A DNA stretch of 58,228 nt from Abditibacteriaceae bacterium (GTDB lineage Bacteria; Armatimonadota; Abditibacteriia; Abditibacteriales; Abditibacteriaceae), in the NCBI GenBank assembly GCA_031372065.1, contig JANMKN010000250.1, forward strand, positions 1-58,228, in the 5' to 3' direction. The notes below the pieces were generated by a model that did no database searches, was not told the origin of the DNA, and worked only from the letters and a program-made list of their open reading frames with translations. Both the position numbers and the translations under genes were made by a program. Shown here piece by piece: positions 14,559 through 25,287 of this stretch (position 1 is its first letter; each line of letters starts with the position of its first letter).

Positions 14559-14903
14559 TTACGGCTGTTTGCCGCGCGGTTGCAGGACGCTTACCAATGA
14601 TTTCAACAGGCGGGTGCGATATTCCGTCGCTATGGCCACGTTACGCTGATGCAGTTCCAAAAGAGCAGTGTCCACCTCAAAGTTGCCCTCTGCGCTCTGG
14701 TGCATGGGAATTGTGGTTTTGCTATCGCCATCCCATTCCACAATCGTTGAGGCGGCCAAACGTGGCTTGGATTCAACGTCGCCGTCCTCCGACGGCTTGA
14801 CTTCGGTGTAATACGTTTCAACCGTCATTTCGCCAGCGTCTTCGATAGCCTTGACGATCTTTTGCGCGGCGCTGCGGACGGACTTTTCTAACTCATTGGA
14901 CAT
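14559..14903 (-). CDS. Hypothetical protein; stand-alone copy of the domain shared with the two upstream genes
   Basis: RBS AAGGA; LAASTIVEWDGD...LHQRNVAIATEYRTRLL. Confidence 0.8.
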   Translation of the reverse strand: MSNELEKSVRSAAQKIVKAIEDAGEMTVETYYTEVKPSEDGDVESKPRLAASTIVEWDGDSKTTIPMHQSAEGNFEVDTALLELHQRNVAIATEYRTRLLKSLVSVLQPRGKQP

Positions 14904-14914
14904 GGTTTCTTTCC

Positions 14915-15691
14915 TTAAATATTTTGCGGGCTGTTTTGCAGTTCCAGCATTTGTTTGATGAATCTCAGGACGGCTGGCAAGACCAATAAAGGCCCGCCGG
15001 GGAGCGACAAGCGAAGCGACAGGCTGATCGCCATTTGCACAGTGGCGGTGAACATTTTCAGCATTGTTTCACGGGATTTCAACGCCAAAGCGACTGTGCG
15101 TTGATGCAGCATCACCTCCTCGACTGAATTGCTGCCCGGCCATACGGTTTGCACGTCACCCGACCAATTTACGCTGGTGTGGGCCAGCAAACGCCCGGCG
15201 ATGCGGGTTTCGATTGATACACACTCCGCGACACTCTGCCGTAGCTTGTCTATCAGCGTTTGAAAGACCTGCTGCGCCTGCTCCCAGCCTAAGCCGGACA
15301 CCGCTAAATTGTCATCCACACTAAAACTGACAGGCTGCGCTTCGCCTTGTAACAAAGCCAACAATTCGCGTTCGGGTCGGGGCAAATCCATCATGGTTTC
15401 CGCTCCGGCGGTAAACGAAACCGGACCGAGAGGTTCCAATTGTTCCAGCCTGCTCGCCGCCACAGTGAGCAGTTGCTGCGAGCGGCGCAGGCTGTTTTCG
15501 CTTGCGCCAAGACGCGTCGCCGCCAATACAGGGTCAGTCGGCAAATTGACCTGCCAAAGCACTGGAACCGGCGTCGTGGGCACATCGAACGATATATCGC
15601 CCGTCACGCTGTCCATTGCTGTTGCCGCGTTGCTTGTCCACAAGTCCAGCACGTCAATCGGCGCGGCGCCATCGCACAAATTTAGCTCCAT
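14915..15691 (-). CDS. Hypothetical protein with the shared C-terminal domain and a hydrophobic tail
   Basis: Operon spacing; LLAHTSVNWSGD...LHQRTVALALKSRETML; tail LSLPGGPLLVLPAVLRFI. Confidence 0.8.
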   Translation of the reverse strand: MELNLCDGAAPIDVLDLWTSNAATAMDSVTGDISFDVPTTPVPVLWQVNLPTDPVLAATRLGASENSLRRSQQLLTVAASRLEQLEPLGPVSFTAGAETMMDLPRPERELLALLQGEAQPVSFSVDDNLAVSGLGWEQAQQVFQTLIDKLRQSVAECVSIETRIAGRLLAHTSVNWSGDVQTVWPGSNSVEEVMLHQRTVALALKSRETMLKMFTATVQMAISLSLRLSLPGGPLLVLPAVLRFIKQMLELQNSPQNI

Positions 15692-15705
15692 TTAGCTCCA
15701 TGATG

Positions 15706-17910
15706 TTACAGGATTTTGATCACTTGGGCCAAGCCGCTGGCCGCCGAGACCGCAGTTTTGAGTAATTCGGTGCGGTGCGCCTGCGCTTGTTGCACCATTG
15801 CGACGTGGATGGCCCACAAAGCGTCGTCCACGCCGTCCTCGGTGGTCGGCACGCAGATTTCTGTATCGCCATCCAGTTTGATGCGCGTCACAGCGCGCAG
15901 GTGAGCGCCCGCAAACAAATCGTCTTTGCTTTGCCCAGTTTCCATCTTATCGCTAACGTAGGTGGTCACTTCCAACTGCGATATGTTCTGCACGAATTCC
16001 TGCAAAGCGACGCTCAAATCCTCAGTAAATTTGCCTAATGCCGTGCTAACGTTCTCCTTCAAGTCACTGGCTTCTTTAGACGCCGTGCCAAAGACTTTTT
16101 TAATGGTGTCCCCGGCCACACTAAAATCTTCATCTTCGCCGCTTTCTGGGGCACTTTCAGGCGCAGGCGCGCTGACAGAGGACACTGCCGGTGTGGTTTG
16201 TCCGCCTATAGTTACCATAACCGTAATCGGTGACTGGACTGGCATAAGAGGCGCTGAAGGTGTGGCAACCTGCGGCGGTGTGCCACCTGCGTTTCTAACA
16301 GAAGCAGGTTTCGGTTCGTCCGGCACAGTATGCGGTTTTTCGGGTTCTGGCGGTTTTTTTGGCTCTGTTTCGTTCGGTAGTGGCATGATAAGTTTGATAC
16401 TTGGCCTTTCAGTCACAGGCTCACCAGCGGCAGCAACTTGCAACCGCACTGCCGGGTCGCCGAGGATGACGAAACTGCGCGCGTCGTTGTTGGCAGTCCA
16501 CCGTTTACCCAGTTCAACGCGGTCATGGTCGTCGGGTGTGTAGTCGGGATCGTTGAAAATTTCCAGCCTTTCGCTCAGGTCGGAGGACAACTCGGAGTAG
16601 CGTTGGTTGAAATATTCGAACGCCGCACCGACCGGGTAGCCTTCGAGCAATTGCGTTAAGGTGCTTTTATAGGCCGCAAGCTGTGGCCCGGCCATGTCGG
16701 ATACAAAGGAACAACCCCATGCCCGCTCAACGTGACCCAGCACGGCTAAGGCGCCGCCATCGGGGTGGCCAAGCATACGCTGTGGCAATCGCGCCACGAA
16801 AGGATGCGGCGCGATGGCAGTTGGCCCATTGGAAGTTCGATGCGGGAAATCATCCAATTGTGGTGTGCCTGCGCCATAGCAAGCGAAGTGAAACGCGATC
16901 AGCCCCAACAAATTGGCATCGTCCGTGATGTCGTCTGCGGACAGGTAATGTTCACGTTGGACTTTCCCCTCTTGGCGTCTTTGAGGGCCGGGCCAATCTT
17001 GGCAAATCAATGCACCTTGATGGGATAATTGGTGCGGGTCGCCATCCGAAAACCCCATGCCGTGGCTGGCAGTAAAAAGCAGGGCCGGAGGCTGCGCGCC
17101 GCCCATCAACTTCTGCAAATTAGCCTTCCCAGCACCGTTTCCCACCAGCGTTTCGACCTTCCAATCAGGAAAACTCAGCGGACTGACTTCTCCATCAGGG
17201 GCATTCTGGCGTTTGTTAGTTACATAATCGGCCAAGGGTTGCACTAACTGACTGCTGCTTAGGAACGTGGCTCTGTCGTTGTCATTACAAACGCCAACGA
17301 AGGCTGCGCGCCGTGGCAATGCGAAGTTGCTGGTTTCAGCAGCCACCACGCTGCGGGCATATTGCGCGTATTCTTCCGGTGTGGGAAAGTGCAGACGCCC
17401 AACAGCGTATGCCACGTCAAGCTGATATTGAAAGCGATAGGGAATCTCTTGCGGGTCACCGACCAGCAGCAAATAATAAGGCACCTTTTCCGGGTCTGCG
17501 GGGCCGGTGGTGTCGGCGCCCCAGCGCCGCAAAAACTCCTGTTTGGTTTGGTTCGGCTGATATTCCAACACCTTATAATAATTCCTTGCCTGCGCTTTGC
17601 GGTGTTCGAGCAGCACACCCAATGCTTTCTTGACTTTTTCATCGGTGTCCTTCGCAAAGACGACGCCCCAGCCGGTTTCCTCTAATTTTTTGGGGTCTAC
17701 ACCCGCAATCGGAGCAAATTTTTTCGGATCTGTTCGCTTCCGTAGCTCCTCCAAATCGTCCAAGTGTTCTTTGTCCTGCTTTTTATTTTGTTTGCTATCG
17801 CATATTTCCTGCGAAAGTTCCGCTGGCGTCATCGGCGCCAGCAGATACTCGCCAGTCGCGCCGTTGATACCGTTAAAAACTAACTGCTCGTCTGTCACAA
17901 TGTCTGTCAC
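15706..17910 (-). CDS. Gingipain-like C25 (caspase-hemoglobinase fold) cysteine peptidase with Pro-rich linker and C-terminal unnamed domain
   Basis: YYLLLVGDP and AVGRL (C25 N-lobe); catalytic FTASHG and FACYGAG; ILGDPA; RBS AAAGGAG before GTG; no signal peptide. Confidence 0.8.
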   Translation of the reverse strand: MTDIVTDEQLVFNGINGATGEYLLAPMTPAELSQEICDSKQNKKQDKEHLDDLEELRKRTDPKKFAPIAGVDPKKLEETGWGVVFAKDTDEKVKKALGVLLEHRKAQARNYYKVLEYQPNQTKQEFLRRWGADTTGPADPEKVPYYLLLVGDPQEIPYRFQYQLDVAYAVGRLHFPTPEEYAQYARSVVAAETSNFALPRRAAFVGVCNDNDRATFLSSSQLVQPLADYVTNKRQNAPDGEVSPLSFPDWKVETLVGNGAGKANLQKLMGGAQPPALLFTASHGMGFSDGDPHQLSHQGALICQDWPGPQRRQEGKVQREHYLSADDITDDANLLGLIAFHFACYGAGTPQLDDFPHRTSNGPTAIAPHPFVARLPQRMLGHPDGGALAVLGHVERAWGCSFVSDMAGPQLAAYKSTLTQLLEGYPVGAAFEYFNQRYSELSSDLSERLEIFNDPDYTPDDHDRVELGKRWTANNDARSFVILGDPAVRLQVAAAGEPVTERPSIKLIMPLPNETEPKKPPEPEKPHTVPDEPKPASVRNAGGTPPQVATPSAPLMPVQSPITVMVTIGGQTTPAVSSVSAPAPESAPESGEDEDFSVAGDTIKKVFGTASKEASDLKENVSTALGKFTEDLSVALQEFVQNISQLEVTTYVSDKMETGQSKDDLFAGAHLRAVTRIKLDGDTEICVPTTEDGVDDALWAIHVAMVQQAQAHRTELLKTAVSAASGLAQVIKIL

Positions 17911-17958
17911 GTTTTGCTCCTTTGAAATGTGTGAAATGTGTCGTTTTTGGCGAAAGCT

Positions 17959-20900
17959 TCAAGTGCCCAGTTGTTTGTCTAATGCCCACGCCACCACATC
18001 ATTCAATGATTTACCGCGCGCGTCGTGGCGCAATTGCGTGAGGGCAGCGTCATCAAGTCCGGCGCGCGGCGCGACATTTTGCAGCAAATCGGCGCAGTAT
18101 TTCTGATGAGGTGAGCCAGCCTCTTCGAATAAGCGCACGGCAGCAGTGAAGAGGCGGCAAGCGGCGTGCAGTTCGCTCCGCGATTCGGCGATTTCTCCCA
18201 AATTCGACAAGCCCCGCGCCACGCCGAAGGTGTCCCCCAACGCTTGTTCGATGTTAAGGGCTTCTTCATAAAATTTCTGCGCTTCTTCCAATCGTTCCAA
18301 TTCTTGGGATTGCACCCCCAGATTAGTCGCCGTTTCGGCCACACCGCGATTATCTCCCAGCTTGCGTCGCAGGGCTAAGGCTTCTTGCAGGTGCAGCGAG
18401 GCCGCATCGCGCTCGCCAACCTCATCTTCGGTCAGCCCCCAGTTGTTCAGCACCATGCTGGCACCTTGATCATTGCCGGACTGCCGGTAGATTTCCAACG
18501 CCGTTGCGAAGTGTTGTCCTGCACCAGCGGCATCCTGCACATCGCGTCGCGCCGACCCTAACAAATTATGGGCGGCGGCTTGACCTCGTGCATCGCCCGC
18601 CTGCTCGCAGCGCGCCAAAACCTGTAGCAAAATCTGCTGTGCGGCCTCCTCTTCACAAGCATCAAGATGCAATCCGGCGCGTTCCAGTTGAAGATTGTTT
18701 AATATTTCACTGTCAGGTGACTGCGGCGGCGTAATTTGTAGACCGCTTTCTATTTGGCGCACTGCTTCGCGTAAAAATCCACGCCTTTGCAAAAAGCATC
18801 CTAACAGCAACGAGAACTCGGCGGCTTGCGCGGCTTCGCCCGCCGCGCGGCACCATTCCTGTGCGCTATATGCGTTCTCGTAATCGACTTGAAGGCGGCT
18901 TAGTGCTTTCATCTCACCGGGCGAGCGCAGCTTTGCCATTTGTTCGCGCGCTATTTTCAAAAAATGCTGTGCGTGCTTTTGCCGCACGCTAACGCCATCG
19001 GGCGATTCGTCCAGTTTCTCCACTGCGTAGTCGCGCAAGGCTTCAAGCATGGTATGACGCCTGGCGCCGTTGCCGGAGGCGTCGCGCAGCAATGAATGGC
19101 GATCCAGTTCGGCCACACTTTCCAACGAGTCGAAGATGTCGCAGATAGCCTCTATGTCGTCTATGGTGAAGCCGCCGTGAAAGACTGCCAGTTGCGCGAA
19201 TAACGACTTACCATCATCGGTGAGCAGTTCATAAGACCAGTCAATCGTGCCGCGCAGAGCGCGCTGGCGCTCTGGTAAATCAGGCGATTTAGATTTCAAT
19301 AAACTGAAACGTTTGCCGAGGCGTTCGAGTATTTGGAAAGGTTCCAAAACCTCAATGCGCGACGCGGCGAGTTCAATAGCCAAGGGTATGCCTTCGAGTT
19401 GCCGGCATAGTTCCACAATGGCGGCGCGATTCTCTTCGTTCACCATAAAATCCTTCTGGCAGGAGCGGGCACGCGCGGTGAACAATTGCTGTGCGGTTTC
19501 CGGCAACAATGGCGGCACTTCTTTAAGTTCTTCGCCCTGTAATTTCAAGGCACGGCGCGAAGTGGCGAGGATTTTAATGCCCGGCGCAGCCGTCAGCATA
19601 TCGCTGATGACCGTGCCAGCATCGGGGATTTGTTCCAGATTATCCAGAACCAGTAACATACTCCGACCCTGCAACAAGCCATGAATTTGCTCCCGCGCTG
19701 TAGCTGGTGGCTGTATGGTAAAGTCCAGCGTATTGGAGATGTGTTGCAACATCCCATCGCTGTCGCGCTTGTCTGCAAGTTCAATCCAACACACGCCGTC
19801 AGGAAACTCACTAACCCAGTCGTGGGCACAAAGTGTTGCGAGTTGCAACGCTGAACGCGTTTTGCCCAAACCGCCAAAGCCCGTTAGGGTCAGCAGACGG
19901 GTGGCCGGTTGGCGTAAAACTTCGCCCCATGCGATGATTTCTTCTTCGCGTCCGATGAATGGCGTATTTGGCTTGGGCAGATTGTATAATGCTGGCGTGG
20001 CGACTTTGAGCGGTTGTTCAAGTGGCAGCAGAGTTTGCCCTACGCATCCGCTTTTCAAACGCATGAACAAGACGGGCATCCACCAGTCGTCACTTTTAGG
20101 CACATTGGCGCGTGCTACGCCGCGTGCCACTGCCATAGCACGATCAATCTGTCCATCGCGGCGCAATTCCTTAAAGAAGCACGGCATGAAGTGTTCAACC
20201 GTCTCCATAGAGACTTTTCCCTGCATGGCAATGACAGCCGGGACGCCTGCATCGGCCAAGAGCGGCCCCAGTGCTGTCAACGCGCCACCTGGCCCCTTGG
20301 CTGTTGCATCACCCGCGCTCTGGCACGAAGCCAACACAACTAAGCGCGGCGGTTGTTGAATTGATTGTTTCAGGCAATTGGCGAGTTCAGCGCCCTTTTC
20401 TTTCTTTACATCGCCCGTCGTGTCTTCCAGAAAGAGGATTGGTTCTTCTCCGGTCAGTGATCCATGACACACCAGATAGAGAATGTCGTAACCGTCTCGG
20501 AGCTTATTAGCAATATTGATTAGCGCGGCGTTGCCCGGCATATCCGGGTCGGAGCATAGTGTTTCTACGGTAATTCCGCCTAAACAAAGTTGCGCAGCGC
20601 CTTTCCAGAAACCTTGCCCGGACAGCGCTTCTATTTTCTTTGATGCTTCCTCTACAGTAATTCCGCCTAAACCGGCACAGGCGCGGGCCAATTCTCCTTT
20701 TACATCAATGGCCGTGAGAGGCGGCCCGCCACCCGGCTTCCACTTGTTCAAACTTTTAGGGTTTGCAATGACCACCAGCGCCTTCAAGTCGTGCAGCGGG
20801 CGCATATCTATAGGGCGCATATCGCTGCTGCTCAAATAGCGCGAAAAAACATGGTTTTCATTGGTCAGAAGAGGTTTGCCGCTCTGGGGATCGTGCAGCT

Positions 20901-21234
20901 TTTCCCAGTGCAAGCCATGCAAAGCGGTGGCACGACGCTCAATGGAAAGGCGAATGCGTAATGCCGCGCTGAGCGCACTGGCGCGGGCGCAAGCTATGTC
21001 AAATGCATTATGTAACTCGCCGACCCAAAATGATTTGCTGAGTTCGATAGCATATTCTTCGCTGCTATAGATTAAACCGTCCAACTTCTCCAGATTGAGG
21101 TCTAAATAGGTTGGTTCATCGCCCAACAAGCGCGCTTCGGTATCGCTGCCCACTTGACTAAAATCTAATTCGACCGTATAACGGTCATCATCTCTTTTGA
21201 ACAACTTGATTTCCAAATCAGCGTAAGCGGACAT
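17959..21234 (-). CDS. CHAT protease - STAND (NB-ARC/AfsR-type) ATPase - TPR protein
   Basis: CHAT LHWEKL, LVCHG, LASCQS, VIAMQ, WWMPVLF; Walker A GFGGLGKT; Walker B LLVLDNLE; EGIPLAIELAA; C-terminal TPRs. Confidence 0.9.
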   Translation of the reverse strand: MSAYADLEIKLFKRDDDRYTVELDFSQVGSDTEARLLGDEPTYLDLNLEKLDGLIYSSEEYAIELSKSFWVGELHNAFDIACARASALSAALRIRLSIERRATALHGLHWEKLHDPQSGKPLLTNENHVFSRYLSSSDMRPIDMRPLHDLKALVVIANPKSLNKWKPGGGPPLTAIDVKGELARACAGLGGITVEEASKKIEALSGQGFWKGAAQLCLGGITVETLCSDPDMPGNAALINIANKLRDGYDILYLVCHGSLTGEEPILFLEDTTGDVKKEKGAELANCLKQSIQQPPRLVVLASCQSAGDATAKGPGGALTALGPLLADAGVPAVIAMQGKVSMETVEHFMPCFFKELRRDGQIDRAMAVARGVARANVPKSDDWWMPVLFMRLKSGCVGQTLLPLEQPLKVATPALYNLPKPNTPFIGREEEIIAWGEVLRQPATRLLTLTGFGGLGKTRSALQLATLCAHDWVSEFPDGVCWIELADKRDSDGMLQHISNTLDFTIQPPATAREQIHGLLQGRSMLLVLDNLEQIPDAGTVISDMLTAAPGIKILATSRRALKLQGEELKEVPPLLPETAQQLFTARARSCQKDFMVNEENRAAIVELCRQLEGIPLAIELAASRIEVLEPFQILERLGKRFSLLKSKSPDLPERQRALRGTIDWSYELLTDDGKSLFAQLAVFHGGFTIDDIEAICDIFDSLESVAELDRHSLLRDASGNGARRHTMLEALRDYAVEKLDESPDGVSVRQKHAQHFLKIAREQMAKLRSPGEMKALSRLQVDYENAYSAQEWCRAAGEAAQAAEFSLLLGCFLQRRGFLREAVRQIESGLQITPPQSPDSEILNNLQLERAGLHLDACEEEAAQQILLQVLARCEQAGDARGQAAAHNLLGSARRDVQDAAGAGQHFATALEIYRQSGNDQGASMVLNNWGLTEDEVGERDAASLHLQEALALRRKLGDNRGVAETATNLGVQSQELERLEEAQKFYEEALNIEQALGDTFGVARGLSNLGEIAESRSELHAACRLFTAAVRLFEEAGSPHQKYCADLLQNVAPRAGLDDAALTQLRHDARGKSLNDVVAWALDKQLGT

Positions 21235-21475: not shown

Positions 21476-21925
21476 CCGTTCTATATGCTGCGGCGTGTCC
21501 TCCCATCGCCTACTGCCACATTTCTATGTCGTGTTAGAGCGTTCCGATAACTTGTGGCGGCACTCCTATCTCCTGTGGAAGCACTCCTATGGTTTGTGGG
21601 AGCATTCCTATGTCGTGTGGGGGCATTCCTATGGCGTGTGGAGGCACTCATATCGTTTGGGGAGGCACTCCGATGGATAGGAATGCACCTACACGACGTA
21701 GGAATGCCTCCACACGACATAGGAATGCCTCCACACGACATAGGAGTGCCTCCACACGCGATTTGTAGGGACAGAGATTGCTCTGACCTGTTGCCCGAAT
21801 CATGTCGTGAACGGGAGCAGGACAAGCGCTGCCTCTACAAATGGTTGCACCCGCCTCCGCAAACCAAAAGCGCCCCGCCACAAGAGATAGGAATACCTCC
21901 ACAGGCGATAAAAGTGGCTTCACAC
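21476..21925. repeat. 21-bp tandem array arranged as a large imperfect palindrome (axis 21675/21676)
   Basis: GCATTCCTATGTCGTGTGGAG-like units at 21560,21581,21602,21623,21644,21665, then the reverse complement ATAGGAATGCCTCCACACGAC from 21677. Confidence 0.9.
21762..21841. repeat. GTAG-type REP pair (REPIN-like) inserted in the array
   Basis: TTTGTAGGGACAGAG-ATTG-CTCTGACC ... GCTGCCTCTACAAA; inverted GTAG ends with internal hairpins. Confidence 0.6.
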
Positions 21926-22164
21926 GCTAAAAACGCCCTCTCACTGCCTTTTTCCCGCGAATTATGCAAATTTTGCACACCGTGGCGCAGCTTTATAGCG
22001 CCCCTGTGCGTGGAAAGTCAGAACTTTTAATTCCTCTCCCCAGCGAAGCGGTTGGATAGATTCTTAGAATATCGACTTGACCTCGTTATAAAAATGTATA
22101 ATTCCTTCCGTAACGACTTGTCGCAGCGGCAAGAGACGTATGCACTTCTTCATTGAGGATTACT

Positions 22165-25100
22165 ATGAAAACAAAAAGCGTTGTAGTATTGTTGCTCCTG
22201 ACCACCTGTTGTTCGCTCCTGCAAAATGTCGTGGCGGCAGAGATTCGTCCCGCTACACAGGCCTTGCTGGACAAGGCCGTTGAGGCTTATGACTCGCATA
22301 AATTCGACGAAGGCGTAGACCTCGCCAAGACAGCGCTGACCGCAGCGCAGAAATCAGGCGACAAAACCGGTGCGGCAACGGTTCAGGATCAACTCGGCGC
22401 TCTTTACATGCAAATGGAAGATTACGAGGAAGCGTTAAAGGCCTACGATGCCGCCGCTGCCTTATGGCGCGGATTGGGCGAGAAAGATAGCGCGGCGGAA
22501 TCACTCGCTTCTGCGGGTTTGGCCTGCCAGTTGTTGGAGGACTACGAAGAGGCACTCAAACGCCATGAATTAAGCGCCGCTCTCTTTAAGCAAGCTGAAG
22601 ATAAATGTGGTGCGGCGGGTGCGCTTGAGAACGCAGGCGATGCCTATTCTTCGTTGGGCGACGACGCTAAGGCGCTGCAATATTTTCAAAGCGCCTTAAA
22701 GTTGGCACGCGAGGCCGATGATCGCTCTTGTGAGGCAGAGGCGCTCAACGCTCTTGGCCTTCACCTTACAAATATGAGCCGCTTTGATGAGGCACTGGCA
22801 AACCATCAAATGAGCCTGAAAATTAGCCGCGAATTAAAAGACCTCAATTTGGAAGCAGAAACGCTGAGTGACATCGGTGAGATGTATGATTTCAAAGAAG
22901 ATGTAGCCAAAGCAGAGGATTATTACCAGCAAAGCCTGAAAACATATCGTGCTATTCCCGACAATGAGGGACAGGATGGCGAGGAGACAGTTCTCGGCAG
23001 TCTGGGGGCGCTTTACGAGGATACGGAACAACTGGACAAAGCGCTGAATGCCTATCGCGCCATTATGCAAATCGCCAAGGAGCGGGGCGATGATCTGGCA
23101 GCGCGAGTAGACACACTGTTGAACATTGATACGAAGTCACTGCAAGTGGCTTTACTGCGTGAAGACAAAGATTTGACCCAGCCCGACGCCGTGGAACTGT
23201 TAAATACAATCATTCTTGATCATATAGGAGAAGGCGAATTCACGGAAGCTCTCAGCGTCAACGATCTGACGTTCGCGGTAGCGCAAGGCCAAAACAACGG
23301 AGCAGGCGACAAATTACTGCTGGCACTTTGTTGGTATAGGCGCGGCCTTCTCTTACAAAAATCCGAGTTAAACGTGGCTGGGGAATGTTTCGTGCGCTCG
23401 TTGGCGTTGTGGCAGGAGGTTGAGGGCAAGGCGGGCGAGGCGTTAACTCAATTGTCTCTGGCCGAAGTCTACGCGGTTCAAGGGCGCCTATCGGACGCGT
23501 TGCAGGCCAGCACGACAGCCCTGAAATTGTATCGCGAAGAGAATGACAAGTCCGGTGAAATTGAGTCCTTGGGCAAAATTGGCGACATCTACGAAAAGCA
23601 AGGTCTCTACGATAAAGCGTTGGCGCAGCAGCAAGCCACTTTGCAACTCGCGCAGGCGGCGGACAAAAAAGACAGCGAATGCGCAGCAATGTTGGGTATC
23701 GGCGTCATTTATCGCGCGCAGGGCCAAAACGATCTGGCTTTGGCCCAATTCGAGAAAACCCGTAAGCGCTGTGAAGAAACGGACAACTCAGTGATAGCAA
23801 TTGACGTGGCTCTGGAACAGGCCGAACTCAAGCGTTTGACCGGCCACACACCAGAAGCGCTTAAGGACTTTGAAGAGATCTTGCCAACACTGCAAGAAAT
23901 GAAAGATGAGGGAAAAGAGGCCATTGTTAATGGCAGAATCGCCAAAATCCACACGGCGATGGGTCAACATGACGAGGCACTGACGATTTTCGAGGAAAAT
24001 TTGGATGTTTTCGACAAGCTGGGAATGCTTGCTGATCAGGCGGAGACACTCAACGGTCTGGGCGAAGCCCTACTCGCGCGGAATGGGCAAGAGGATGCGA
24101 AGACAGCATTAGTGGCCTTTCAGGAAAGCCTTCGAATCGCACGTGACCTTGGCCTGCCAGTGCTGATGCAGCGAGCGCAGGAACATATGACCAAGTTGGT
24201 CGCCGCGCCCGCCAAGCCACCGTCGTGCCGTTTCATAACTCCCAAACCCGACGAGCAAATCCCCTCCAACAAGTTGGAAGTGCAAGTGGAAGCCACCGGC
24301 GACAAGGAGATTGATCATGTAGATATTTTCTTGGCCAAGGCACAGAAACCTGCAAGCAGGGGGCTGCGAATGCCCTCAAGGGCACTGCCTTCACCAACTG
24401 GCGGACAGCCGGCGCCTCGTTTCAGCCGCTTTTATACCGCCGAAGTGGATATTCCGCCGGGAAATGACGATGTCCTGCTGCGTGCCTTCGCTTATGACGT
24501 AGACGGCAACCCCTCTGAGGCCGCTACCGTGACAGTGCAGCGCGGCACGGCGCCCGCTGTCCCAACCGGCACTTTATACCTTCTCAGCGTCGGCATTAAC
24601 CTCTATGAAGACGTAAAAGTCGATACCCTGAAATTCGCAGCCAATGACGCAAAGGAATTAGCCGAAGTGATGAAGCGTCAAGAAGGCTTGCAATACGCCC
24701 ACGCCAACATTATTTCGCTGACGGATAAGGACGCGACGAAGGCAAAAATACTCAACGCTTTGACGATGCTGAAAACAGCGGGACCTTCCGACACAGTGAT
24801 GGTTTTTCTGGCAGGCCACGGCGTGCAAGACGAGGGCAAATTTTACTTTGCCCCGCACGACATCAACCTGACCAATGTTGCTGGCACCGGCATGGCTTGG
24901 GCAGAGGTGGCAAACGCGCTTTCCAGTCTCCCTAAGAACACGCGCAAATTCCTGCTGGTTGACGCCTGTCATGCGGGCACACAACTTGGCAATCAGAAGG
25001 CAACCAACGGGCAGATAGGCGGTATCTTCCAATCAGATTCGCAAATTGTGGTGTTGGCGTCGTCAAGCGGCGATGAAGTGTCCTACGAAGATGAGAAAAG

Positions 25101-25287
25101 CAAACACGGCTATTTCACTTCAGCCCTGCTCGACGCTATCAAAGGTAAAGCCGATTTCCTCCAAAAGGGCATGGTGACGATGCCAGACATCTTGTCGTGG
25201 TTGAGCGGGACAGTCAAGAGACAACACCCCCAGATTCTCAGAGGGCAATTCAGCCTCAACTCGCCGGTAGCACTGGTGCCTAAATAG
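22165..25287 (+). CDS. Exported TPR-repeat protein with Ig-like segment and C-terminal caspase (C14) domain
   Basis: Signal peptide MKTKSVVVLLLL...VAA; many TPRs; LSVGINLY, LKFAANDA, FLAGHG, LVDACHAG, HGYFT. Confidence 0.9.
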   Translation: MKTKSVVVLLLLTTCCSLLQNVVAAEIRPATQALLDKAVEAYDSHKFDEGVDLAKTALTAAQKSGDKTGAATVQDQLGALYMQMEDYEEALKAYDAAAALWRGLGEKDSAAESLASAGLACQLLEDYEEALKRHELSAALFKQAEDKCGAAGALENAGDAYSSLGDDAKALQYFQSALKLAREADDRSCEAEALNALGLHLTNMSRFDEALANHQMSLKISRELKDLNLEAETLSDIGEMYDFKEDVAKAEDYYQQSLKTYRAIPDNEGQDGEETVLGSLGALYEDTEQLDKALNAYRAIMQIAKERGDDLAARVDTLLNIDTKSLQVALLREDKDLTQPDAVELLNTIILDHIGEGEFTEALSVNDLTFAVAQGQNNGAGDKLLLALCWYRRGLLLQKSELNVAGECFVRSLALWQEVEGKAGEALTQLSLAEVYAVQGRLSDALQASTTALKLYREENDKSGEIESLGKIGDIYEKQGLYDKALAQQQATLQLAQAADKKDSECAAMLGIGVIYRAQGQNDLALAQFEKTRKRCEETDNSVIAIDVALEQAELKRLTGHTPEALKDFEEILPTLQEMKDEGKEAIVNGRIAKIHTAMGQHDEALTIFEENLDVFDKLGMLADQAETLNGLGEALLARNGQEDAKTALVAFQESLRIARDLGLPVLMQRAQEHMTKLVAAPAKPPSCRFITPKPDEQIPSNKLEVQVEATGDKEIDHVDIFLAKAQKPASRGLRMPSRALPSPTGGQPAPRFSRFYTAEVDIPPGNDDVLLRAFAYDVDGNPSEAATVTVQRGTAPAVPTGTLYLLSVGINLYEDVKVDTLKFAANDAKELAEVMKRQEGLQYAHANIISLTDKDATKAKILNALTMLKTAGPSDTVMVFLAGHGVQDEGKFYFAPHDINLTNVAGTGMAWAEVANALSSLPKNTRKFLLVDACHAGTQLGNQKATNGQIGGIFQSDSQIVVLASSSGDEVSYEDEKSKHGYFTSALLDAIKGKADFLQKGMVTMPDILSWLSGTVKRQHPQILRGQFSLNSPVALVPK

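Follow-up and report, generated by a model that had tools for sequence, protein, structure and literature searches.

Background

Activation of a second clan-CD protease by a CHAT protease has been demonstrated in bacteria for SAVED-CHAT, which switches on PCaspase (available text of Steens et al., 10.1101/2023.06.23.546230). Protease-linked effector types described by Evans et al. include hydrolases and phosphoesterases; one hydrolase in that work, linked to a caspase, becomes active after two cuts (main text, 10.1101/2025.11.14.688446). In the gingipain precursor proRgpB, the processing site lies just before the mature domain (available text of PMC4357240). Here we describe a locus of four genes, P1 to P4, in a 58,228-nucleotide stretch of DNA from an Abditibacteriaceae bacterium (contig JANMKN010000250.1; the whole stretch is called the window). 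It combines a CHAT-NB-ARC-TPR protein, a C25-type protease without a signal peptide and two small proteins that share a domain. With moderate confidence, we interpret it as a modular proteolytic relay with two tiers that serves immunity or cell death: a sensor would turn on a CHAT initiator, the initiator a C25 executioner, and the executioner the membrane-active P3.

Results

Gene content of the locus

The four genes are real and conserved. An earlier reading made from the letters of the window without database searches (the sequence-only reading) had described four closely packed minus-strand genes. All four open reading frames were confirmed at 21234-14559, with intergenic gaps of 48 nt (P1-P2), 14 nt (P2-P3) and 11 nt (P3-P4), and the motifs quoted in that reading (LVCHG, LASCQ, ASHG and FACYG) lie where it had placed them. 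The features are as follows, SD being the domain shared by P2, P3 and P4.

17959..21234, minus strand: P1, 1091 aa from ATG; CHAT protease, NB-ARC/STAND ATPase and TPR array
20106..20967, minus strand: CHAT domain of P1, of the clade that travels with the C25 family
17962..19926, minus strand: NB-ARC-TPR part of P1, related to local paralogues
15706..17910, minus strand: P2, 734 aa; predicted C25/gingipain-fold cysteine protease without a signal peptide
17713..17718, minus strand: candidate activation site F65/A66 in the P2 N-terminal extension, at a conserved position
16120..16125, minus strand: candidate tail-release site F596/S597 in the P2 linker, fitting the loose motif only
15709..16080, minus strand: SD copy 1, the P2 tail, with His702 and Arg713
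14915..15691, minus strand: P3, 258 aa; helical N-half, SD copy 2 and a C-terminal hydrophobic helical hairpin
within 14915..15691, minus strand: SD copy 2, in the P3 C-half, with His196 and Arg207
14559..14903, minus strand: P4, 114 aa; stand-alone SD (copy 3, all of P4), with His85, Arg96 and the invariant DGD

The first gene had been read as a CHAT protease with intact His and Cys joined to STAND and TPR parts, and this holds. Pfam matches P1 to CHAT (E 1e-23), NB-ARC (E 1e-8) and TPR_12; LVCHG starts at residue 254 and LASCQ at 301, placing the catalytic pair at His257 and Cys304, and Walker A (GFGGLGKT) and Walker B (LVLDNLE) motifs start at 452 and 528. Both catalytic residues are intact in 63 of 63 aligned domains of the CHAT clade. 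We infer that P1 is both the sensor and the initiator protease. P1 looks like a local sensor swap, because its CHAT resembles that of the best named relative, L004 (an Abditibacteriaceae genome bin, 60% identity), while its NB-ARC-TPR part resembles cyclase-like paralogues of its own genome. The two CHAT domains are 51% identical, and the L004 sensor is SIR2-like plus nSTAND1-WD40. The NB-ARC-TPR part is 40-48% identical to four paralogues whose N-termini, read by eye, resemble class III nucleotide cyclases. An expanded family of such cyclase-like NB-ARC-TPR proteins is present on G000 contigs C404, C143, C326 and C328 and is the probable source of the P1 sensor part.

P2 consists of an N-terminal extension of about 80 aa before the C25 model's first strand, a core, a Pro-rich linker and a C-terminal SD. 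The Pfam Peptidase_C25 match covers residues 377-490 only, at 25.2 bits against a cut-off of 23. ASHG starts at 281 and FACYG at 342, with His283 and Cys344 as the catalytic pair; across cores, the His is kept in 218/219 and the Cys in 217/219. In global alignment the P2 core runs end to end with strong Pfam-C25 members, and comparison with 22 such members gave 98% in global, 96% in relaxed local and 71% in default local mode. The Cys matches the Cys of the family in these alignments, and the His is out of register owing to an insertion. Neighbours of P2 in the Atlas bear PF01364; a direct profile search of PDB sequences did not find a gingipain. P2 is thus placed in C25 by profile and dyad, and its predicted C25 fold rests on profiles.

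A hydrophobic N-terminus is absent from P2, whose best 12-residue hydropathy is 0.74 versus 2.55 for the signal-bearing neighbour at 22153. Dyad, profile and hydropathy therefore agree with the earlier description of the second gene as a signal-less C25-type peptidase with a Pro-rich linker. Judged by the missing signal, the short extension and the SD tail, P2 is not a secreted gingipain. The bridging alignment has a gap at the position of the gingipain S1 residue Asp163; in a register set by hand this position corresponds to the invariant Thr215, with the invariant Asp212 near, and specificity for Arg is probably lacking.

The SD domain, P3 and P4

SD, a domain of about 110 aa, is present in three copies in the locus: at the end of P2, in the second half of P3 and as the whole of P4. 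Profile-profile comparison relates the copies at a probability of 97-99.9%, and in each an invariant His is followed eleven residues later by an invariant Arg. P3 and P4 had been called two small paralogous genes. They are indeed related, but the paralogy amounts to one domain, of which a third copy sits on the P2 tail. The predicted P4 model (pLDDT 84) is a helix, three strands and a helix, and that of P3 (pLDDT 79) has three helices and low-confidence loops, then SD, then the helical hairpin. A hydrophobic segment near the C-terminus is found in 73% of 150 P3 homologues versus 0 of 120 P4 homologues.

Neither P3 nor P4 matched Pfam, NCBIfam or PADLOC, and 33 P3 and 25 P4 members gave no consistent Pfam match at E up to 1. 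Pfam has models of the Pepco/Trypco, EACC1, CATASP and gasdermin effectors. None of these was listed in the fold searches of the P3 and P4 models; the P3 model returned generic helical bundles only, and an Atlas search with P4 gave no usable match. SD is apparently an undescribed family. P3 would be a latent effector and P4, which is missing from some loci, an accessory. Comparison of SD with the short tails of hydrolase-type C25s gave 64%, on the last SD helix only, a hint that these tails may be vestigial SD helices.

A candidate cut motif

The strict motif, [VI]-[SAD]-[FY]-[GADS], was drawn up by eye on other members of the same families and counted against shuffled sequences. For P2 linkers, 80 were retained from 119 hits after dropping 20 that had already been viewed and those that were too long or could not be split. 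The motif occurred 190 times in 149 P3 N-halves against a shuffle mean of 8.3 (maximum 16), an approximately 23-fold excess, and 42 times in the 80 P2 linkers against a mean of 1.7 (maximum 7). There was no excess in C25 cores (17 vs 18.8) or in P3 C-halves (7 vs 5.4). P3 has three sites, F35, F93 and F123, all in low-confidence loops of the N-half. The F65 position of P2 is a large hydrophobic residue in 185/213 cores and R or K in 25/213, followed by G or A in 199/213, and lies just before the mature domain, like the processing site of proRgpB (available text of PMC4357240).

Within the P3 loops and the linker of P2, the motif likely marks cut sites; F65, F596, F35, F93 and F123 are the putative cleavage sites. 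A conserved candidate site in the extension of P2 and another candidate in its linker would fit C25 activation as well as tail release. The loci give a mixed picture of whether the upstream protease sets the N-terminal site, which is R/G beside a C14 caspase in L154 and beside a different CHAT architecture in L171-L184, but M/G beside a C14 in L007. The L171-L184 group is a subclade of tail-less C25s that adjoin membrane-anchored CHAT and TPR-CHAT genes. Hydrolases and phosphoesterases carry the motif too, as do 4/5 papain-C25 fusions with no neighbouring CHAT, in which it precedes the papain domain.

Distribution and synteny

P2 homologues fall into at least 6,738 clusters among 8,000 candidates scored, and the P3 family into 752 clusters at 50% identity; the C25 family is present in Chloroflexota, Cyanobacteria, Acidobacteria and others. 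Locus counts refer to the best 80 of 602 genome loci. A gene-neighbourhood survey of C25 homologues had been called for, and it revealed a CHAT of P1's clade at 57/80 loci and, where both flanks reach 6 kb or more, at 41 of 46. P3 is in the operon at 36/80 loci and P4 at 24/80, and CHAT, an SD-fused C25, P3 and P4 share one operon at 10/80. Among 121 Chloroflexota genomes, drawn evenly but including a centre genome picked as a carrier and kin that are not independent, C25 is present in 10 and the CHAT clade in 9, all 9 of which overlap. Where loci have no adjacent CHAT, related CHATs were found elsewhere in 5/5 genomes tested. A CHAT-C25 distance correlation (Spearman 0.54, 55 pairs) was set aside as confounded by kinship.

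The system is patchy among 41 relatives, where strong matches to both CHAT and C25 occur in G000 and G003 only, and the cassette lies at the point where synteny with G001 and G002 breaks; its exact insertion site could not be shown. Relatives occur on three plasmids, in addition to one weak match, and the plasmid copies adjoin transposases or WYL, PD-(D/E)XK and UvrD genes. The flanks of loci are mostly housekeeping.

Swappable sensors and effectors

Both sensor and effector are swappable. Among scanned proteins, the sensors fused or adjacent to CHAT include nSTAND1-WD40, SIR2-like plus WD40, CHASE2, HEAT, FGE and NB-ARC-TPR. A GHSFG alpha/beta-hydrolase is found at 27/80 loci, mostly cyanobacterial, and none of the 80 loci has both this hydrolase (27 loci) and P3 (36 loci). 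A metallophosphoesterase occupies the effector slot of L065, with a homologue in L069, and there are C25s that carry a fused hydrolase, membrane domain or papain. This exchange of P3/P4 with known protease-activated effectors was overlooked in the sequence-only reading, as were the SD on P2 and the three motif sites and hydrophobic hairpin of P3.

Several variants were seen in passing. In L039, L065, L069 and L076, the C25 carries an unannotated membrane-spanning tail in place of SD, and two of these adjoin a metallophosphoesterase-type gene. The Chloroflexota loci L147-L151 encode fusions of a papain (C1) to C25, about 980 aa long, in which SSF-type motifs precede the papain; their neighbours are housekeeping genes (recO, phosphorylase), and the papain is possibly a further protease tier. 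In L032, a lipoxygenase gene (16942-19110) comes after the hydrolase-type operon, and ORFs of about 724 aa occupy the same place in several other Nostoc loci.

Source DNA and flanking genes

Sequencing depth is even across the stretch, with no joints, as judged from contigs of one DNA run that is possibly the source of this DNA. The runs containing the stretch are freshwater-sediment DNA only, all from one study, and no RNA run was among those listed. Promoter and terminator scans of the locus gave no excess over shuffles. In the 0.9-kb gap upstream of P1, a degenerate 21-bp unit is repeated in tandem about ten times, in two arrays that adjoin each other (21551-21758). Beyond this gap, a divergent plus-strand gene (22153-25287) encodes a C14 caspase, its AGHG and DACH motifs intact, together with a signal peptide, TPRs and an Ig-like domain. 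It has several paralogues in the genome, two of them on contigs that also bear cyclase-like STAND-TPR genes, and is not kept beside the cassette in relatives.

Discussion

The relay that we favour would begin when a ligand, probably from an invader, binds the TPRs of P1 and the NB-ARC oligomerises to make CHAT active, as is modelled on known STAND receptors. CHAT would cut the P2 zymogen near F65 and so remove the N-terminal extension, and active P2 may amplify the signal by cutting other P2 molecules. With a preference for Phe/Tyr over Arg, P2 would cut x-[SAD]-F/small sites, namely F596 in its own linker and F35, F93 and F123 in P3. The three SD copies would keep the protease next to its substrate, and P3, once cut, would release a fragment whose hydrophobic hairpin inserts in the membrane, so that the cell is killed or arrested; these last two steps are the weakest. 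As read from sequence, such a relay is suggested by the genes with their intact dyads, by the three copies of SD, by synteny and co-occurrence in genomes, by sensors and effectors that can be swapped, and by enrichment of the motif. P2 is favoured as the Phe cutter because the motif follows C25 into fusions that have no CHAT. A bolder version is possible but doubtful: many interchangeable NLR-CHAT receptors would converge on one intracellular, Phe-specific, gingipain-fold executioner that releases plug-in effectors via a common motif, the three SD subunits would co-assemble here as a new multi-component membrane pore, and the whole would be a widespread bacterial counterpart of the apoptosome/initiator/executioner caspase pathway.

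Several observations weigh against the relay. The 80 loci, chosen as the best among 602 and with many from Nostoc, are not independent. PADLOC matches 6 of 121 flanking proteins (159 selected; no control set), mostly to generic domains, and hence there is no defence-island signal; nor was a match found in viral contigs or phage records. To our knowledge, the host has no known multicellular habit. The P3 hairpin of this window scores 1.52, under the cut of 1.6 that was used, and fold searches matched neither the P3 nor the P4 model to a known pore-forming fold. Motif counts are inflated by kinship and by a design made by eye on members of the same families; F596 fits the loose motif only, the P4 of this window has no motif, and the 25/213 cores with R or K at the N-terminal site show no obvious change at the hand-guessed S1 residues. 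The two-protease module proposed in the sequence-only reading gains from synteny, co-occurrence, intact dyads and sensor shuffling. In that reading CHAT would act on C25 once the TPRs bind a ligand; C25 may instead process itself, or CHAT may cut everything, and an anti-phage role draws no support from the flanks, which give no defence-island signal.

A rather unlikely alternative has a single cutter. CHAT would cut all F/small sites, P2 would be a parallel, broad effector protease that degrades host proteins as PCaspase does, and P3 and P4 would be co-substrates or PCi-like inhibitors. The likeness of N-terminal and effector sites, nearly identical in L214, suits this, as do the related CHATs elsewhere in genomes whose loci have no adjacent CHAT and the breadth of PCaspase, which has an inhibitor (available text of Steens et al., 10.1101/2023.06.23.546230). 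It is harder to square with a motif that accompanies C25 into papain-C25 and hydrolase-C25 fusions, and the conserved hairpin of P3 and its exclusive exchange with the hydrolase suit an effector better than an inhibitor. A chance juxtaposition, with the CHAT-STAND-TPR gene unconnected to a C25-P3-P4 cassette of three genes, is highly improbable. None of the annotated loci combines P3 and P4 with exactly this sensor, some loci have no adjacent CHAT and the NB-ARC-TPR part comes from a family of local paralogues, but CHAT adjoins C25 at nearly all well-flanked loci and at 48 nt here, and genome-wide co-occurrence largely refutes such a juxtaposition.

Non-immune signalling in stress or development, which we judge unlikely, would have many CHAT receptors feed one C25 hub, with the freed SD fragments serving as dimeric YbaB/EbfC-like DNA-binding or chaperone proteins. 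In a ranking of 48,161 entries against the P4 model, YbaB-family structures take places 1, 2 and 6 (Z 5.3, 5.2 and 4.8; root-mean-square deviation 4.9-6.2 over 80-87 residues), CHASE2 sensors occur, G081 and G056 give 13 and 18 CHAT-clade matches (matches, not copy numbers), and the flanks are mostly housekeeping with weak defence context. These Z scores are middling, however, the best match (Z 5.3, deviation 5.5, 80 aligned) standing only 0.4 above unrelated rows; profile-profile comparison of SD with 30 YbaB sequences reached a probability of at most 2.7%, and PF02575 (YbaB) was not found in Pfam scans of P3 and P4 members. The patchiness of the system (2/41 relatives), its place at a synteny break, the plasmid copies beside transposases or WYL, PD-(D/E)XK and UvrD genes, and the swapping in of a known death-effector type also speak for the immune or cell-death relay instead.

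If the relay is true, it would bring C25, which is familiar from secreted virulence proteases, into intracellular bacterial immunity as a third family of clan CD, and it would represent an NLR-triggered initiator-executioner cascade in bacteria; the literature searched has such cascades only downstream of CRISPR/CBASS signals. It would also add a new effector family. Exact cut sites are predicted (P2 F65 and F596; P3 F35, F93 and F123), which makes the model directly testable, and a protease that cuts at Phe within a defined sequence could find use as a tool.

Comparison with known systems

The sequence-only reading had not recognised the layout as a named defence system. P1 shares with Avs and other NLR-like STAND receptors an effector-STAND-TPR layout and intact Walker motifs, but PADLOC 2.0 matched no Avs model, giving for P1 a generic TPR match only, and the NB-ARC-TPR part is related to AfsR-like proteins and to the local cyclase-type paralogues; Avs membership was rejected. 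The helix, three strands and helix predicted for P4 have their best structural matches in YbaB/EbfC, at a Z of only about 5. Sequence and profile similarity are absent, and the DGD, His and Arg that are invariant in SD are its own.

The following comparisons draw on the portions of each paper that were available. The gingipains RgpB and Kgp (MEROPS C25, PMC4357240) share with P2 the two-subdomain core, the His-Cys dyad and an N-terminal extension before the first strand. They differ in having a 229-aa prodomain and an Ig domain, where P2 has its much shorter extension, an SD and no signal peptide. The modules of Evans et al. (10.1101/2025.11.14.688446; alpha/beta-hydrolase, metallophosphoesterase, Pepco, EACC1 and MBL) likewise have swappable STAND sensors, and their hydrolase and phosphoesterase types fill the same slot in P2 relatives. 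Their latent effectors carry conserved cut motifs and undergo multi-site cleavage, whereas the sites here are candidates; they use one protease rather than two, and their hydrolase motif is R/G, in contrast to Phe/Tyr and an SD family. The main text of Evans et al., whose supplement may list neighbourhoods, makes no mention of C25, gingipain or CHAT, and C25/gingipain was not found in the main texts of Kaur 2020 and Kaur 2021, whose supplements may list such neighbourhoods. No description of a C25 tier or an SD family was found in the literature searched, which left most subscription papers outside.

The SAVED-CHAT/PCaspase system of Haliangium type III-B CRISPR/CBASS is arranged alike, in that its CHAT initiator stands next to another protease of clan CD and has small substrates nearby, which in the present locus are putative. 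Its trigger is cA3-SAVED and its second protease C14, whereas STAND-TPR and a C25 fold take these places here, and the P1-P4 operon has no CRISPR, sigma factor or kinase. Membership was rejected, as P1 is CHAT-NB-ARC-TPR and P2 is C25, with no SAVED and no C14. The locus thus represents a real, widespread and apparently undescribed system that is a variant of a known logic.

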